Below are positions 253 to 46,787 of a stretch of DNA of 64,000 bases, one piece after another. Position 1 is the stretch's first letter, and each line of letters starts with the position of its first letter. The DNA comes from an uncultured Candidatus Saccharibacteria bacterium (GTDB taxonomy: Bacteria > Patescibacteriota > Saccharimonadia > Saccharimonadales > CAIOMD01), in the NCBI GenBank assembly GCA_964566135.1, contig CAZMHM010000001.1:5829-69828 (forward strand), given 5' to 3'. Both the position numbers and the translations under genes were made by a program. The notes below the pieces were generated by a model, which was not told the origin of the DNA, ran no database searches, and was given only the letters and a program-made list of their open reading frames with translations.

Positions 253-1407
253 ATGTCGGAGCAAAACAAACAAAGTTACGCTTTTGATTTTCCACCTATG
301 CCTGCGCTATCGGCTACTGAGAGTGCCGAAGTAAAAAAAGAGCGCAAATGGCCACGCCGGCTTGCGAAATCTATCTGTGCAGTTGCAATCGGGCTTGCAG
401 TCATAGCCCCACAAGTGCACAAAGTCGACACAATTGTTTCAGCGGAGCGGTACCAGCAAGACGAAGTTGAAATATTACTTGCTGCCGGAGCCGAAACGCT
501 TCCAAAGGGTGGCACAGAGTGGCTGGTGTTTGGAGGTTACGGCCAAAAGTACAGCACAAACGCCGCCCAAGAACTTTTTAATGCCTTAGGTAGCAAAGAA
601 GTAGTAGCCTCTGTTAAATACCCGAACCAAGGGTTTACGATCGACGAGCTAGCAACCTATGTACATGCATACATGAAACAGAGGGGTATGAGTAAGCTTA
701 ATGTTGCTGGGGTAAGTTTGGGTACGCCGACAGCGCTGATGACGCTTGGATATATCCAGGAGCATGCCAATAATCCATTAGCTCAGTATCAAGACATTGC
801 GTTTAGTCCACGTGGCCTTGCGCTCCGTAAACTACCAGAAATCGGCTATTTTATAGCGTATTCATCACCGGCAGATGTACAAGACGCATCACAAGGATAT
901 ATCGCCCAAACAATCGTCTCCAGAATCAAAGGCACAGGTTATGCGCCTGGTATGATTGATAAGTTAATTGTCTCTGGCTTTGATGGTGAGGGGGATGGTT
1001 TGAAATCGATAAATATACTAAACCCCGCCGAATGGCTGAAGCAACAACACAATAATTTAGAAGAAACGTTTAATGACACGCCAACGTTAATGGTTTTGTC
1101 ACAAATGGAAATTGCTGCCGAATTTAATGTGGATGAGCAATGGGAAAAATGGCGGTTAGTGCTTTCGCCTGATTCTTACTTTGGCTATTTTTATCCGTCA
1201 AAGGCCGACCCAACGGTTAATGATGCCGGTGCATACCGTAAATACGAAGTAGCACTCAAGCATTTAGATGTGCCAACAGCCTATGTGCCAACAGGCGAAC
1301 CGGGCCATGCCAATACTGTCGCAACCGCATCGGCGGCTAGTAAGTGGATTGCAATCGATACGGCAGCACTGCCAAGCATTGTGCTCAAACCACATGTCTC
1401 GAATTAA
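253..1407 (+). CDS. Hypothetical membrane-anchored protein, possible alpha/beta-hydrolase fold
   Basis: 384-aa ORF with an N-terminal TM helix (ICAVAIGLAVIAP) and a GVSLG nucleophile-elbow-like motif. No clearer family signature seen. Confidence 0.4.
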   Translation: MSEQNKQSYAFDFPPMPALSATESAEVKKERKWPRRLAKSICAVAIGLAVIAPQVHKVDTIVSAERYQQDEVEILLAAGAETLPKGGTEWLVFGGYGQKYSTNAAQELFNALGSKEVVASVKYPNQGFTIDELATYVHAYMKQRGMSKLNVAGVSLGTPTALMTLGYIQEHANNPLAQYQDIAFSPRGLALRKLPEIGYFIAYSSPADVQDASQGYIAQTIVSRIKGTGYAPGMIDKLIVSGFDGEGDGLKSINILNPAEWLKQQHNNLEETFNDTPTLMVLSQMEIAAEFNVDEQWEKWRLVLSPDSYFGYFYPSKADPTVNDAGAYRKYEVALKHLDVPTAYVPTGEPGHANTVATASAASKWIAIDTAALPSIVLKPHVSN

Positions 1408-1448
1408 AGCGCTATAATGTAAGTAACAAGGTGGTTAAGGAGGGTACT

Positions 1449-2363
1449 ATGGGGCGAAATATCATATTCGGGTATGGTAACGTAGGTCGGCTAATTGCAT
1501 CCGAGTTAGAAGCACGAGGCGAGGAAGTCGTACTAGCCCACCATAAGCAAATCCAAGTGCTGGGCACTGCTGTGGTGGTGGTTGACAGCCTAGACGCCGA
1601 ACAGGTGCGCCAGGCTGCGGTTGGGGCTGATAGACTTTTTATGACGATTGGCCTTGCATATAAGCTCAGTGTCTGGAAGCGAGATTGGCCAATTATCATC
1701 GATAACCTTATTGCTGCGGCGAAAGATAGTGGCGCTAAGATTGTATTCTTTGACAATATTTATTTGTATGGCCCATCGCCATTACAAAATCCTATTACCG
1801 AGCAACACCCTCGACAGACACCTTCCCAGAAAGGCGCCGTTCGCTTAGCACTCATACAAAAACTCGAAGCTGCTATGCAAGCGGGAGTGCAGGTACTAAT
1901 TGTGCGGGCGGCTGATTTTTACGGTCCAAATGTTAGTACGAGCGCCGTGACGATGGCAATTGCTGATATGGCGAATGGTAAAAAAGCCTATTATCTCGGC
2001 GATCCAACAAAGTTGCATAGTTTTACGTATGTTCCAGACGCGGCAAAGGGCGTTGTTGAACTAGCGCTTGCCGATGACACGTATGGCCAAAGTTGGCACC
2101 TACCAACTGTTTCGCCTATGACGGGCCAGGAATTCCTGCAACTCATTACCACAAAGCTCGGCAAAGGGAAGTGGACGGCGCTCAGTAAGGGTGGCGTTAA
2201 ATTTATGGGACTATTTGTGCCGATTTTGCGTGAACTACACGAAATGATGTATCAGTTTGAAAATGATTATGTCTTAGATGATTCGAAGTTTATGAACCGG
2301 TTTCCACATTTCGTTCGTACGGGCTACGAGCAAGGTATAGACGAAACAATTACGTCGCTTTAA
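1449..2363 (+). CDS. NAD(P)-dependent epimerase/dehydratase-family (extended SDR) protein
   Basis: ATG at 1449 is preceded by AAGGAGG. The N-terminus has a Rossmann glycine motif (IIFGYGNVGRLIA). The ORF-track start at 1344 would overlap the previous gene. Confidence 0.65.
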   Translation: MGRNIIFGYGNVGRLIASELEARGEEVVLAHHKQIQVLGTAVVVVDSLDAEQVRQAAVGADRLFMTIGLAYKLSVWKRDWPIIIDNLIAAAKDSGAKIVFFDNIYLYGPSPLQNPITEQHPRQTPSQKGAVRLALIQKLEAAMQAGVQVLIVRAADFYGPNVSTSAVTMAIADMANGKKAYYLGDPTKLHSFTYVPDAAKGVVELALADDTYGQSWHLPTVSPMTGQEFLQLITTKLGKGKWTALSKGGVKFMGLFVPILRELHEMMYQFENDYVLDDSKFMNRFPHFVRTGYEQGIDETITSL

Positions 2364-3046
2364 TTACTCTTTTTGTAGTGACGGTTGCCATATAAGTAGT
2401 ACTGCAAGCCTTGTTGAGTATTGGGCACGTTGTTGGTATCCGAAGTATCGGGCTCAGTAGTGCTTGTTGAAGAAGGCGCTTCGGTAGAGTTTACGGCGTT
2501 TGAAGGAGTATTAGGATCCGAATCGGCTGCCTGGTTACCCATTGATGGCGAGGTTTCAGTACTTGTTGCTGGGGCGGTTGATGTCTCAGAAGGTATTGCT
2601 TGCTTTTCTGCCATAAGTGCATCGGCTTTTGCCTGAATCGATTTATATGCAGAGGGGCCGAAGGTAACAACAAAAATTGCCAGGGGCACTGCCAGGATAT
2701 ACCAAAGTAAAAAGCTCCAACTCGCTTCTTCGGGCACAGGTTTTGCTTTTGGCGTGTGGGTTGTTTTGGGCCACGGCGAAGTCGCGTGTGTTTGGTACGT
2801 ATGAGCAGTTCGTATTGGCGCAGTTTTTGGCTGTGGGGGTGCCGGCGGAGTGTAGTCCATTCGCTTTAATGGATCCGAAAGAACAGTGTAGGCTTCGTTA
2901 ATTAATGCCATGCGCGTGCCATCGCCACCGTTTGCATCGGGGTGATGAACTTTACTCAGGGCTCGATAGTGCTGCTTAATTTCGCTAGAAGTAGCTCCTG
3001 GCGTAACCCCAAGTACCTTGTAGTAGTTAACCTCTGATTTTCGCAT
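2360..3046 (-). CDS. J-domain (DnaJ-like) membrane protein with a Ser/Thr/Pro-rich tail
   Basis: The N-terminus YYKVLGVTPGATSSEIKQHYRALSKVHHPD...INEAYTVLSDPLKR is a canonical J domain with HPD. It is followed by one TM helix and a low-complexity tail. Confidence 0.75.
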   Translation of the reverse strand: MRKSEVNYYKVLGVTPGATSSEIKQHYRALSKVHHPDANGGDGTRMALINEAYTVLSDPLKRMDYTPPAPPQPKTAPIRTAHTYQTHATSPWPKTTHTPKAKPVPEEASWSFLLWYILAVPLAIFVVTFGPSAYKSIQAKADALMAEKQAIPSETSTAPATSTETSPSMGNQAADSDPNTPSNAVNSTEAPSSTSTTEPDTSDTNNVPNTQQGLQYYLYGNRHYKKSN

Positions 3047-3185
3047 CAGCTTATAGTATACCGCGAAAATATGAGTAAGCTGTGAGCGACAGGGGTGACA
3101 ATCTGCTTGACAAGTGGGTAGCTGGTAACTGTTTAAGGGCGCAGTAGCGCCAAATAATATGTACCGGCTTTTCCGATGTCAAAAA

Positions 3186-43100: not shown

Positions 43101-43211
43101 GCCCTATACGGTAAGCTTAAGCACAGTTTACCCACAGGGTAGGTTGAAACAATCTGATATCTTTGGTAGTATAGCGGTTGGCTCTTAAACGAGTAGTACC
43201 TTCCAAATTTT

Positions 43212-43288
43212 GCCGACATAGCTCAGTTGGCCAGAGCGGCTGTTTTGTAAACAGCGGGTCGTGGGTTCGAATCCCTCTGTCGGCTCCA
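43212..43288 (+). tRNA. tRNA-Thr (anticodon UGU), CCA encoded
   Basis: Hand-folded cloverleaf: acceptor GCCGACA/TGTCGGC, D-arm GCTC/GAGC, anticodon stem GCTGT/ACAGC with loop TTTGTAA, T-loop TTCGAAT. One T-T mismatch in the T-stem. Confidence 0.85.
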
Positions 43289-43431
43289 AAATGCTATCAA
43301 CCAATAATGGTTGCGCTAGTTTTAGATACCATGCGAGAGTATCTAAATCCCAGAACCTTACGTGAGGTGAGGTTCGGGGGAGGTGTTACAACCAGGGTAG
43401 GCGTCTGCGTAGACTCAGACGTCTACATTTT

Positions 43432-43517
43432 GCAGGGTTAGTGAAGCGGTCAAACACAACAGACTGTAAATCTGTCCTCTTTCGAGTTCGGAGGTTCGAA
43501 TCCTCCACCCTGCACCA
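43432..43517 (+). tRNA. tRNA-Tyr (anticodon GUA) with a long variable arm, CCA encoded
   Basis: Acceptor GCAGGGT/ACCCTGC, anticodon stem ACAGA/TCTGT with loop CTGTAAA, T-arm GGAGG-TTCGAAT-CCTCC. Confidence 0.9.
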
Positions 43518-43525
43518 AACTAATA

Positions 43526-43555
43526 GGACCTACCCTGAATGGGTGGGTCTTTTTA
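43526..43555 (+). terminator. Intrinsic terminator after tRNA-Tyr
   Basis: GGACCTACCC-tgaat-GGGTGGGTCT followed by a T-run. Confidence 0.65.
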
Positions 43556-43561
43556 GTTTTA

Positions 43562-43686
43562 TGGAGGCGATGATGGATTCGAACGACAAAGCTCAGTGAG
43601 CTTTGGCCGCCTGAAACCCGTAGGGTTGCATTGGCAAATGTAATGTTCATTTGCCTGCAAGGTCGAATCCTCCACCCTGCACCAAA
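43562..43686 (+). repeat. Repeat unit 1: three-hairpin element ending in a 24-nt exact copy of the tRNA-Tyr 3' end
   Basis: 43663-43686 is identical to 43496-43519 (TCGAATCCTCCACCCTGCACCAAA). The 5' box ATTCGAACGACAA is at 43577-43589. Hairpins lie at 43588-43604, 43615-43627 and 43633-43655, and the unit has its own terminator at 43695-43718. Confidence 0.7.
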
Positions 43687-43724
43687 TAAAAGTGCCCCGG
43701 CTTGTCTGGGGTATTTTTATTTGG

Positions 43725-43842
43725 TTAAGTAGTCGGGCATTCGAACGACAACTGCTTGTAGCAGTTGACCGCCGTTTAGCCACGTAAGTGGTTTGTCAGG
43801 CAAAAGTAAGTTTCTTTTGCGACAAAGGTCGAATCCTCCACC
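43725..43842 (+). repeat. Repeat unit 2: same architecture as unit 1, more diverged
   Basis: ATTCGAACGACAA recurs at 43739-43751. Hairpins at 43750-43766, 43780-43791 and 43800-43820 occupy matching positions with different stem sequences. The unit ends AAGGTCGAATCCTCCACC (43825-43842), as does unit 1 at 43659-43676. Confidence 0.65.
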
Positions 43843-43895
43843 AATCCCTATTGACTAAACCGCAAATCAGAGGTAAAGTTTCTGAGGTTTGATTT

Positions 43896-44093
43896 ATGAG
43901 TGTTGATATCCAAAATTCGATTGTTCCAGAGCAAAGAGATGCCGAGATTCCAAGCATGACTCGGCCTAATCGGCGTAATGTTGACGATTTTGCTAAAACG
44001 TATCGCCAGCTAGCTGCTGTAGCAATTGATCCTGATACTCGGCAAGAATACTTAATGATGGCCGAAATGTTCGACCAAAAACCACGTACTTAG
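43896..44093 (+). CDS. Hypothetical small protein (65 aa)
   Basis: ORF between the repeat units and tRNA-Thr. No family recognised. Confidence 0.3.
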   Translation: MSVDIQNSIVPEQRDAEIPSMTRPNRRNVDDFAKTYRQLAAVAIDPDTRQEYLMMAEMFDQKPRT

Positions 44094-44137: not shown

Positions 44138-44212
<75 letters not shown>

Positions 44213-44409
44213 AGAAGATAATTACAATTATAATAAAGTTATTACGACTTGTCATGGCTCCTGAATTAGAAGAAGCGTACAAGAAATATCATAATTAACT
44301 AAAACGCACAACATACAATGTGCGACATAGCCGACAGTGAAAAATCTGTCGGTTTTTTGATTGCGCACTATGTCTTTCGCTGGTAAACTTTAGTAAATAA
44401 AGGGTGGCG

Positions 44410-44922
44410 ATGAAAGGGATTTTTATGGCTACCGATAATAAAAACATTGCAATCATCAAACAATCTATAAAAGAACAGAAGCTTATGTTTGAGTATACTA
44501 ATAATATTTACGACCAGCTTCGTATCAAGGCTCTTGCACTAATCGCGGGAGAGGTAGCGATACTAACCTTCTTGTTTAATACTTGGAATTTCAGACTTAT
44601 TTTAAAAGATAGTGATAGGATTTTCTTCTTCTTTACTGGTGTCGTGTTCATGGGTCTCGCGTTTGCTTTTCTTTTATGGATTATATCGACTGTACCTTGG
44701 AAGTTTCCTCACGATTTGCAGAGCGCAGACGCGCACCTGAATAATAAGAATTACGATAGTGAAGAGAGTTTTCTGAAAATTTTACATGATGACTACATCG
44801 TAGTGAATAAGCACAACTCGGAAATTGTCACTAACAAGTATAAAAAGTTTAATTGGACTATATTTCTACTTGCGGCAGGTGTTATAATAGTAATGGTTAT
44901 TAAATTCGGAGGGCCACAATGA
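44410..44922 (+). CDS. Hypothetical 3-TM membrane protein
   Basis: ATG at 44410 is preceded by AAGGGTGG. The gene is AT-rich and is flanked by two near-identical terminator hairpins (44330-44357 and 44973-44999). Confidence 0.5.
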   Translation: MKGIFMATDNKNIAIIKQSIKEQKLMFEYTNNIYDQLRIKALALIAGEVAILTFLFNTWNFRLILKDSDRIFFFFTGVVFMGLAFAFLLWIISTVPWKFPHDLQSADAHLNNKNYDSEESFLKILHDDYIVVNKHNSEIVTNKYKKFNWTIFLLAAGVIIVMVIKFGGPQ

Positions 44923-45133
44923 CAAGTAACGAAGTAACAATAATCCAATAAGAGTTTGAACGAGTGGAATAGCCGACAGAAAAATCTGTCGGTTTTTTTA
45001 TTCGGGGCTTTATTCTGCACACAGTTAGCACACCACTAACAGGGGCGGGTGTTAAAAATACTATTGCCAAAACTTTATATAATTGCTAATATTAATTCGT
45101 GGCGTCGACCCGAGGGGTCCATGGCCACACCAA

Positions 45134-45832
45134 TTAAGTCTTAAAAACCCAAACATCAAGATTTGAAGTTTTGACATCACTAGCGAGAGATTTAACTCTC
45201 GCTTTTTTGATTACATTGCTCAAAACGGATTTTTTTGCATCACCTGGTCCGGGTATCAACCCAGCGTTTAATTTGAATTCGTAAGCCACAGCTCCCAGTA
45301 ATAGGTCGGCAAGCTGAATCATTTCAACACCTTTTGAATATGCACGAATGACACCAAGGGCAGGATTGTGTTCAAATTTTTGATTTCGATTGATTTTACG
45401 CTTTACTAATGCTTCAAACTGAGTACCTTTTGGGACACTCAAGTCATCCATGATGAGCATTGCTGATTCTTTGCGGCCTAAATTCGCGCAAACTTGCATA
45501 GCGGCAAAGGAAGTATAGGCTGAGTACAAGTTTCCATTGAAATGCTCTTTCAGGTCAAGGTCTGATTTCTTAAAAATATAACAGCTGAACTTTGCTTTAT
45601 CGTAGGTAAAGAATAAGTCAACAAATTTATTAATTACGGGTGCATTTTTATTGTAAATTTTACTCCACTTTATCTCATCATAGAAGGAAAGTTCGTCGCG
45701 TAGTTGTTTAATGGCCTCAAATAACTCCTCGGGCTTTTGTACTTTTATCATGGCTACACCAAAAAACTTATCTCTGGGAGAATTTAGTAGACCAGTTTCA
45801 TCAAAAAAACAGAACTGAACATTTTTATCCAT
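45134..45832 (-). CDS. DUF3800-family protein
   Basis: The N-terminus FCFFDETGLLNSPRDKFFGVAMI and the YDEIKWSKI motif fit the DUF3800 pattern. Confidence 0.6.
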   Translation of the reverse strand: MDKNVQFCFFDETGLLNSPRDKFFGVAMIKVQKPEELFEAIKQLRDELSFYDEIKWSKIYNKNAPVINKFVDLFFTYDKAKFSCYIFKKSDLDLKEHFNGNLYSAYTSFAAMQVCANLGRKESAMLIMDDLSVPKGTQFEALVKRKINRNQKFEHNPALGVIRAYSKGVEMIQLADLLLGAVAYEFKLNAGLIPGPGDAKKSVLSNVIKKARVKSLASDVKTSNLDVWVFKT

Positions 45833-46101
45833 TAAGCTGATTATATACTCGTTAAGCCTCCTCTACCAGGAATCAAACAATATAACTTGAATTTAACTTT
45901 TAATAAGTTCATATTATTAATAGATTCGTACCTTTGTGCGCTGGCGGATGAGAATCCTCTCGAAAAAACGTCGAGTTAGTGCGTCCCTACATCCTTAGCT
46001 GTCCTCCTCAAAATCTATCTTTTAGGTTTTGAGGTGGGGACATAGCTTAAGGATGTGCGGGTTACGCCCCTAATACAAACGCACGATGAGGAGATGTTGA
46101 T

Positions 46102-46272
46102 ATGGTCCATTTTAAGGTCTATCAAGATACTTTAGGCGGATGGCGATGGCGTTTAATAGCAGCCAACAACTATATTGTTGCTGTTAGTAGCGAATCATAT
46201 GATTCAAAGCAAGGCGCAGTTGATTCCGCTGACTGGGTAAGGAGAAACGGGCCTACAGCTCCAATCTTCTAG
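46102..46272 (+). CDS. DUF1508 (YegP-like) small protein, 56 aa
   Basis: MVHFKVYQDTLGGWRWRLIAANNYIVAVSSESYDSKQGAVDSADWV fits the YegP repeat consensus. A GAGGAG ribosome-binding site lies upstream. Below the ORF-track cutoff. Confidence 0.6.
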   Translation: MVHFKVYQDTLGGWRWRLIAANNYIVAVSSESYDSKQGAVDSADWVRRNGPTAPIF

Positions 46273-46416
46273 TCCAGCTTCCGCCAGCGCATTGAGATAC
46301 GAATTAAAAGTACTCCATTGACAAACATAAGCGTCAGTGATATTATGCAACTGTACTTTTACAAGTAACATAGTCACTGTCGCTAGATTGTTTAATGTTA
46401 CTTATCTTTGTAAGAA

Positions 46417-46475
46417 GCCGTAGCACTTCCATGGTAAGGAAGGGGTCCCGAGTTCAAATCTCGGTGACGGCTCCA
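46417..46475 (+). pseudogene. Truncated tRNA-Thr(GGU) copy lacking the D-arm (attR-like repeat)
   Basis: GCCGT is joined directly to AGCACTTCC...GGCTCCA. Relative to 44138-44212, the segment CATAGCTCAGTGGTAG is missing. Confidence 0.7.
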
Positions 46476-46477
46476 AA

Positions 46478-46583: not shown

Positions 46584-46787
46584 ATGGCAAAGAAAACCCT
46601 AAAACGTAAGACTATCGGACTGGTATGTGAAAACTGTGGCCAGCGCCATCACTATACTGTTAAAAATACCCAAAATACACCAGACAAGATTAGCTTGCGC
46701 AAATATTGCCCAACTACTCGTAGCTACACAACGCACACAGAGACGACCAAGAACCTTGGACGTAACGTCGTAAAAGCTAAAAAGTAG
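46584..46787 (+). CDS. rpmG: 50S ribosomal protein L33 with a C-terminal extension
   Basis: CENCGQRHHYTVKNTQNTPDKISLRKYCPTTRSYTTHTE parallels the L33 core (xTxKNxxxxPxKLxLxKYxPxxRxxTxHxE). Confidence 0.8.
   Translation: MAKKTLKRKTIGLVCENCGQRHHYTVKNTQNTPDKISLRKYCPTTRSYTTHTETTKNLGRNVVKAKK

Follow-up and report, generated by a model that had tools for sequence, protein, structure and literature searches.

Organization of the tRNA-Thr–tRNA-Tyr locus

The window analysed here, a 64,000-nucleotide stretch of contig CAZMHM010000001.1 from an uncultured Candidatus Saccharibacteria bacterium, contains four tRNA genes according to ARAGORN and Rfam, namely tRNA-Thr(UGU) (43212..43288, plus strand), tRNA-Tyr(GUA) (43432..43517, plus strand, CCA encoded), tRNA-Thr(GGU) (44138-44212), and a tRNA-Trp situated farther off. 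The first of these is gene 1 of a Thr-Tyr cluster and is preceded by a sigma-70-like promoter (TTGAAA-17-TAGTAT with TG; 43144..43172, plus strand). The cluster belongs to a conserved gene order composed of a class I W/Y tRNA synthetase (PF00579), RluD, HolB, a TPR protein, tRNA-Thr(UGU), a structured spacer, tRNA-Tyr, tRNA-Thr(GGU), and rpmG. Behind tRNA-Tyr, the window carries two tandem units, designated U1 and U2, each of which ends in a copy of the 3′ end of tRNA-Tyr and which are the subject of this analysis. The promoter at 43144..43172 is the sole plus-strand promoter-like site upstream of them.

Tandem periods ending in a copy of the tRNA-Tyr 3′ end

The final 22 nt of tRNA-Tyr together with the 2 nt that follow constitute the master copy of the repeat (TCGAATCCTCCACCCTGCACCAAA, 43496-43519), which has a second exact occurrence at 43663-43686. 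The 14-nt core TCGAATCCTCCACC is present three times (43496, 43663, and 43829), compared with 0.03 occurrences expected in the window, and none of 100 shuffles reached three; similarly, the 13-nt unit start ATTCGAACGACAA is found twice (43577 and 43739), with 0.04 expected. The repetition comprises the whole period, that is, the terminator, spacer, body, and tail copy. Period 1 (43520-43686, 167 nt) and period 2 (43687-43852, 166 nt) can be aligned over their full length, showing 116 identities in 178 columns (65% identical), with z scores of 5.0 for the bodies alone and 3.4 for the terminator plus spacer. This end-to-end alignment indicates that the whole period was duplicated in tandem and then diverged. 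The 167-nt period escaped detection by Tandem Repeats Finder because the identity between the periods is below 70% and thus below the range of the tool. A previous sequence-only reading of this DNA had pointed out the recurring tRNA-Tyr 3′ end, a shorter version of it in both units, the common unit start, and the position of unit 1 between two terminators, and all of these observations were confirmed; its tandem unit was also recovered as a repeat, but the extent had to be widened from about 110 nt to the whole 167/166-nt period.

All features of the two periods lie on the plus strand. Period 1 opens with the terminator T1 (43518..43558), composed of an A-tract, an 11-bp G+C-rich stem, and a U-tract, which forms a strong hairpin (-24.4 kcal/mol, z -6.5). 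The terminator T2 (43685..43721; -19.3 kcal/mol, z -4.6), which opens period 2, likewise bears A- and U-tracts and is homologous to T1, to the terminator located directly after tRNA-Tyr in locus L023, and to a T2-like terminator after tRNA-Tyr in locus L028 (L-numbers designate the related loci compared). The copy at 43663..43686 that closes period 1 runs from the T-loop to CCA plus AA, while the copy in U2 (43829..43842) is truncated to the 14-nt core and adjoins the promoter of a small open reading frame (ORF, 43896-44093); the L023 ortholog of U2 has the full copy and its own terminator.

Predicted fold and compensatory changes

In minimum free energy (MFE) predictions, U1 and U2 each fold as a three-hairpin junction (z -3.2 and -2.8, respectively). 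The unit start GGATTCGA and the T-loop copy TCGAATCC are reverse complements of each other, and the pairing between them closes a four-way junction. In U1, the 5′ strand of this closing helix is the anti-T-loop segment GGATTCGAAC (43575..43584) and its partner is 43663-43670, corresponding to the first 8 nt of the tail copy; the three enclosed hairpins are CAAAGCTC AGT GAGCTTTG (hairpin 1, 43587..43605), AACCC GTA GGGTT (hairpin 2, 43615..43627), and GCA..GGCAAATG TAATGTT CATTTGCC TGC (hairpin 3, 43628..43658). The corresponding parts of U2 are the anti-T-loop segment GCATTCGAAC (43737..43746), hairpin 1 with CAACTGCT TGT AGCAGTTG (43749..43767), hairpin 2 with GCCAC GTAA GTGGT (43779..43792), and hairpin 3 with TTGTC AG GCAAAAG TAAGTTT CTTTTGC GACAA (43793..43825). 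The closing helix GGAUUCGA/UCGAAUCC comprises 8 bp in U1, 7 of 8 in U2, and 10 bp in both L018 and the E. coli repeat RtT. The three hairpins that had been proposed for each unit in the same order are therefore present in both MFE folds, with the stem of the second hairpin of U2 corrected to 5 bp including one G.U pair.

The stems are maintained by changes on both sides. Pairing holds in 97% of the cells when U1, U2, and L023 are aligned over hairpins 1 and 3 and the closing helix, and six pairs have changed on both sides, which none of 500 shuffles matched; in a control with slid partners, pairing falls to 30-45%. Between U2 and its L023 ortholog, the flanks are near-identical and hairpin 1 differs on both sides at four of eight pairs, all of which still pair, one of them as U.G on the plus strand. 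Hairpin 1, the first after the anti-T-loop segment and closed by an NGY triloop, is paired in 41 of 42 cells across six class-A units, a comparison that is weaker evidence in that it assumes positional homology among distant units. In the class-B relatives, covarying helices flank a conserved internal loop, CGCGCA ... YGAGCA. The sample behind these measures of structure conservation is small. Coding potential was considered and rejected, given that the ORFs of the units overlap the tRNA and the hairpins and that U2 and L023 differ by stem-compensatory substitutions and not by codon-like ones.

Distribution of the units in related genomes

Relatives were obtained from an exact tRNA-Tyr tail scan of species-representative genomes, from a unit-pattern scan of metagenomes, and from contigs encoding homologs of the neighbouring TPR protein. 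The tail scan yielded 20 loci, 19 of which were in metagenome-assembled genomes of Saccharibacteria/Patescibacteria, and the metagenome scan gave five hits, four being chance matches and L023 alone being real. Tyr-linked units were identified in Saccharibacteria at L003, L007, L009, L018, L023, L038, L043, L049, and L050. Relatives carry zero, one, or two units after tRNA-Tyr, the window having two. For example, L028, whose TPR protein is 90% identical, shows tRNA-Tyr, a T2-like terminator, and then the promoter and small ORF, with no unit between them; L033 is likewise unit-free, L047 retains only a 45-nt remnant, and L023 has a single unit that is orthologous to U2. One unit apiece is present in L038, L043, L049, and L050, with different bodies; the L049 tail is a full 18-nt copy and that of L050 is degenerate.

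Units are also linked to tRNA-Thr(UGU), namely at L013, L016, L018, and L043, where they end in the tRNA-Thr tail. These Thr-linked units are situated in Thr-Tyr or Thr-Thr spacers and thus lie inside the operon transcript. Without exception, the unit tails agree with the tRNA that they follow, down to the CCTCC and CCTAC variants of the tRNA-Tyr T-stem, and the bodies of the Tyr-linked L009 and the Thr-linked L016 units are homologous (z 5.8, p<0.001). Additionally, mosaicism was observed between the units of L043 and L007 and between those of L049 and L050. A further trailer variant occupies the approximately 400 nt that follow tRNA-Tyr in L006 (CAYZZH010000006.1), where each of two tandem repeats of about 190 nt contains a hairpin in which a T-loop sequence faces its own reverse complement (AGATTCGAA-ATGA-TTCGAATCT); these T-loop-palindrome repeats are devoid of an exact tRNA tail copy.

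Comparison with the tRNA-linked repeats of E. coli

The layout described above matches that of the tRNA-linked repeats (TLRs), which have reportedly been known in E. coli since 1978 through work attributed to Egan and Landy (1978) and to Rudd (1999). The E. coli tyrT locus contains 178-bp repeats of this kind. In E. coli K-12, 22 TLRs are distributed over ten loci within tRNA or rRNA operons, with one to five at each, and their hallmark is that the final 18-19 bp reproduce exactly the 3′ end of the directly preceding gene (PMC8144298). The members in rrnA/B/D (RrA/RrB/RrF) are located between the dual terminators T1/T2 and are made by T1 read-through (Stenum et al. 2021, PMC8144298). The RrB RNA measures 173 nt, with its 5′ end 3 nt past the mature 5S end and its 3′ end 3 nt past the repeat, and the authors of that study suggested that the repeat is an RNase E recognition element (PMC8144298). 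As for function, the early claim for RtT was retracted, and in-vitro Hfq/CsrA binding by three rrn-linked members is all that is known (PMC8144298).

The window units are TLR-like by position, tail identity, copy number, and period, and not by sequence. U1 and U2 (43520-43852) directly follow a stable-RNA gene, tRNA-Tyr, on the same plus strand, and the module end copies the 3′ end of that gene over 14-24 nt, compared with 18-19 bp in E. coli; the identity covers 24 of 24 nt in U1, including CCA and the 2 nt beyond, 14 nt in U2, and the full length in the L023 ortholog. Two tandem copies are present in the window versus one to five per E. coli locus, and the period is 166-167 nt versus about 170-180 nt (171-178). 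We verified the rrnB layout as the 5S end, T1, a body with GGAUUUGAAC and a triloop hairpin, an 18-nt copy, and T2, and this order of gene, T1, body, tail copy, and T2 is that of U1, with a nearly equal length. In both systems, the anti-T-loop motif GGAUUYGAAC lies ahead of the triloop hairpin, and related bodies bear the tails of different upstream genes. The RtT units of the tyrT locus start with GGGGAAGGAUGAGAAC, the reverse complement of the T arm and acceptor of tRNA-Tyr with UC changed to GA, and finish with the 3′-terminal 19 nt of the tRNA; they are closed by the pairing of start and tail copy in the Rfam structure and the MFE fold alike. In the window units, a 5′ anti-T-arm likewise pairs with the tail copy and closes a multi-hairpin junction, and the acceptor 3′ strand and CCA are left single-stranded.

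In contrast to these similarities, the two sets of repeats belong to distant groups (Saccharibacteria in the candidate phyla radiation versus Enterobacterales), and expression has been shown for the E. coli members, whereas the window units are known from sequence. The tail copy starts at T55 in the window and at A58/59 in E. coli, and the anti-T-loop of the window units keeps UUCGA, while RtT and some Saccharibacteria relatives have UGAGA, which produces a tandem G.A. Sequence similarity between the window units and the E. coli TLRs is limited to the GGATTYGAAC motif; other motifs picked out by eye (GAGCG and GAAGGNCGAAG) were not significant against shuffles, and sequence homology was rejected on this basis. 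Common descent with the E. coli TLRs is unproven.

Regarding the tandem G.A, its covariation has been reported in RtT (Rivas 2020, PMC7657543). Four of the six class-B units (L003, L009, L013, and L018) and E. coli RtT (L022, tyrT-tyrV) show the same change of GGAUUCGAAC to GGAUGAGAAC, which faces G57-A58 of the forward T-loop piece; the common change could reflect either convergence or shared ancestry. A search for phage copies of RtT gave none, the sole hit being a record of the Salmonella chromosome included in the phage collection. According to a preprint (10.1101/2024.07.17.603846), the coverage of exonuclease-resistant DNA is raised over tyrT-tyrV-rttR-tpr under several stresses, which is compatible with circles excised by recombination between repeats. 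Another E. coli RNA for comparison is 3′ETS-leuZ (cited in PMC8144298), a small RNA derived from a tRNA operon trailer that is released by tRNA processing and has no promoter of its own, as proposed here for the window units. It differs in that it has neither a copy of the tRNA 3′ end nor a tandem repetition, and its sponge function belongs to 3′ETS-leuZ and is unsupported for the window units.

Proposed nature and formation of the units

Taking the comparison together with the structural data, we lean towards considering U1 and U2 as TLR-like trailer RNA modules behind tRNA-Tyr, whose number would change by recombination between the repeats. Each period is composed in order of an intrinsic-terminator hairpin, a short spacer, the anti-T-loop segment GGAUUCGAAC, three hairpins, and the copy of the tRNA-Tyr 3′ end. 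Transcription from the promoter of the Thr-Tyr operon would partly pass the first terminator, by analogy with RrB and RtT, and the trailer would then adopt the four-way junction, closed by the anti-T-loop segment and the T-loop part of the copy. The tail copy would give the trailer the same 3′-processing determinant as the tRNA, so that tRNA-trimming enzymes may divide the trailer into RNAs of one period each, about 165 nt in length, which could then have a role in the cell. At the DNA level, the perfectly conserved repeats of 22-24 nt would allow periods to be gained or lost via unequal recombination, which in turn would account for the zero, one, or two units of close relatives. Of the two possibilities raised in the sequence-only reading, the structured small RNA is the better supported one, considering the double substitutions that keep the stems between U1 and U2 and between U2 and L023, the wobble pairs on the plus strand, and the E. 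coli TLR layout; the att-scar possibility is not supported for these units, as discussed below.

Several findings weigh against this interpretation. A strong terminator lies ahead of each Tyr-linked unit and no promoter-like site was found in front of the units, so that RNA levels would depend on read-through. The minus-strand folds of U1 and U2 have a lower MFE and stronger z scores (-5.1 and -4.4) than the plus-strand folds, and the strand assignment rests on a few wobble pairs because the minus-strand MFE is slightly better. Body similarity to E. coli rrB was not significant (z 0.44 for U1 and 0.07 for U2, compared with 4.8-6.3 for RtT/rrB), and the class-B relatives were no more similar to the RtT bodies than shuffles were (p 0.2-0.8). 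The RtT model RF00391 gave no hit in the window (E<=10) or in seven related loci (E<=1), and a class-B unit scored 11.5 bits against a gathering threshold of 45 bits, the control E. coli tyrT units reaching 114-137 bits; this failure does not exclude relatedness, because the model also misses E. coli rrB. Known RNA families (hammerhead, twister, T-box, tmRNA, YrlA, and other curated families) were rejected for the units, which had no Rfam match at either the gathering threshold or E<=10. Furthermore, the bodies are heterogeneous and turn over fast, as illustrated by the L047 remnant and the unit-free L028 and L033. L049 and L050 have an identical neighbouring TPR protein (P0017) and a common 5′ half of the unit followed by different 3′ halves, a difference suggestive of mosaicism or very recent recombination inside units. 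Finally, the CCA end is missing from several copies, that of U2 included, and a complete tail is therefore not required.

Alternative explanations

One alternative is that the units are scars of integrative elements, left when an insertion with a T-loop-type attP (phage attachment site) at tRNA-Tyr was followed by deletions that retained the attR-proximal 140 nt or so and the displaced native 3′ end. The direct repeats do run on the same strand from the T-loop to or near the CCA end, like the identity blocks of integrases, and close relatives vary in unit presence, as do strains bearing att islands and prophages of tyrosine integrases or integrase-less remnants like those of cis-mobilizable elements. 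Such events have also hit this very locus (a 55-nt repeat of tRNA-Thr(GGU), 2.2 kb apart), and homologous bodies adjoin different tRNAs. However, the interval between the repeats is a non-coding structured one of 143 nt, in which the only ORFs are short and run across the tRNA and hairpin sequences; neither integrase nor cargo is present, and the surrounding genes are core genes. That the duplicated period includes the terminator fits a duplication better than two insertions, a T2-type terminator adjoins tRNA-Tyr in the unit-free L028, and compensatory change keeps the stems. No attP counterpart was found: the exact tRNA-Tyr tails (CCTCC and CCTAC types) and the unit pattern had no match in 2.9 M viral contigs, and BLAST of phage and plasmid collections returned no match to the units, a negative of limited weight given that the viral, phage, and plasmid collections hold few Saccharibacteria elements. 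Being cargo-free, with the terminator inside the duplication and no phage, plasmid, or viral counterpart, the units are unlikely to be integrase scars or att arms.

It is similarly doubtful that the units are non-autonomous mobile cassettes which settle at the 3′ end of a stable-RNA gene and capture or duplicate the tail present there, for which candidate routes would be copying from an RNA template or the action of a recombinase on a folded strand, with the inverted T-loop arms rebuilding a double-stranded T-loop site. Such capture would suit the homologous bodies of L009 and L016, each with its own tRNA tail, the tails that track the local CCTCC or CCTAC variant, the E. coli TLRs that have tRNA or 5S tails in the same manner (PMC8144298), the mosaic units mentioned above, and the inverted pair GGATTCGAAC ... 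TCGAATCC that brackets the body. Nevertheless, no recombinase, transposase, or reverse transcriptase is consistently near the unit loci, the real insertion boundaries show no terminal inverted repeats, and the start of the copy ranges from tRNA position 55 to 62, which leaves no fixed cut site. The arrangement in the window can be explained by tandem duplication and gene conversion without mobility. An origin by reverse transcription with a stop at A58, suggested by several copies of exactly 18 nt (A59-A76) that resemble retroviral primer-binding sites, was rejected as a general rule in view of the starts from 55 to 62.

A less probable proposition still, and one that we regard as very unlikely, is that the units are decaying, functionless tRNA duplicates, that is, pseudogenes whose 3′ end is kept identical via gene conversion with the live gene. 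The succession of three hairpins and a T-arm remnant resembles that of a class II tRNA, in which the D, anticodon, and variable arms come first, the class-B relatives hold forward copies of a piece of the local tRNA-Tyr variable arm and T-stem, and remnants do exist, in L047 and as a third partial period in L018. Nonetheless, neither ARAGORN nor the tRNA covariance model finds anything in 43520-43852, even at E<=10, and the stems of 7-8 bp exceed tRNA arms in length and have been preserved through double substitutions, unlike what neutral decay would produce. A tmRNA-like or tRNA-like gene in the units was also searched for with ARAGORN, which found none. Lastly, a functional minus-strand RNA with a 5′ end antisense to the 3′ end of tRNA-Tyr, in keeping with the lower minus-strand MFE and the z scores of U1 and U2 given above, is extremely improbable, since the wobbles in hairpins 1 and 2 of U2/L023 are G.U on the plus strand and A.C mismatches on the minus strand, the T-runs of the T1, L023, and L018 terminators fit plus-strand transcription, and the strand with the lower MFE is inconsistent across 14 units.

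Implications of a TLR layout in Saccharibacteria

The finding of TLR architecture in a Saccharibacterium of reduced genome, with sister units behind a second tRNA and with compensated stems, suggests that this layout is more than a peculiarity of enterobacteria and is either functionally selected or produced by some general mechanism. No earlier report of the layout at such a distance from E. coli was found in the literature searched. The Saccharibacteria units provide a second, independent lineage for comparative analysis of TLRs, with which the nature of these repeats and the reason for the copying of the 3′ end become testable questions. A bolder proposal, which we hold to be rather unlikely, is that TLR-like modules form a phylum-spanning class, from Enterobacterales to the candidate phyla radiation, that actively acquires the 3′ end of the stable RNA upstream. 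If this were so, it would imply an undescribed mechanism of copying or retargeting, for instance RNA-templated capture or folded-strand recombination in which the T-loop arms mimic the tRNA gene, or alternatively a conserved function coupled to the 3′ processing of stable RNAs.

Additional features of the region

Downstream of the units, an integrase-type islet extends over 44138-46476, where the 3′ 55 nt of tRNA-Thr(GGU) (44159-44213) recur exactly at 46422-46476. The islet starts about 300 nt downstream of the units, and its distal repeat is located just ahead of the native terminator and rpmG (46586-46787). The interval of 2.2 kb has a G+C content of 37.7%, compared with 45.2% for the window, and is integrase-free; it encodes a 172-aa membrane ORF (44404-44922), a DUF3800 protein (45134-45832, minus strand), and a 56-aa ORF (46102-46272). 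L028 represents the empty site for this islet. The islet is a classical integrase-type duplication, and the Tyr units differ from it in all but the duplicated tail. Another recombination-related locus was found in L016, where an ORF of 601 aa for a large serine recombinase (1306-3111, minus strand), with Resolvase, Recombinase, and Zn-ribbon domains, abuts and overlaps the tRNA-Tyr region and may belong to a prophage or island; this recombinase lies beside tRNA-Tyr, whereas the L016 unit is Thr-linked.

Between U2 and the islet, the small ORF at 43896-44093 (65 aa) is preceded by a promoter-like site (TTGACT-17-TAAAGT, 43851-43879) directly after the U2 tail copy. It had no Pfam match, and its homologues follow tRNA-Tyr in L028 and L038. 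Upstream of the units, the spacer between tRNA-Thr(UGU) and tRNA-Tyr (43289-43431) forms a four-hairpin element (-57.4 kcal/mol, z -6.4) that is conserved in L007, L016, L023, L028, L033, L038, L043, L047, and L049, with compensatory stem changes and the conserved loop motifs UGCGAGA, GUGAGGUG, and GAGGUGUUA. This element, which has no match in Rfam, may be an undescribed operon-internal RNA. Finally, in L009, L011, L012, and L020 (Saccharimonadales), an ORF ending in ...IDHIDGN...NLQLICPNCH..., HNH-endonuclease-like by eye, is situated immediately upstream of the tRNA cluster.

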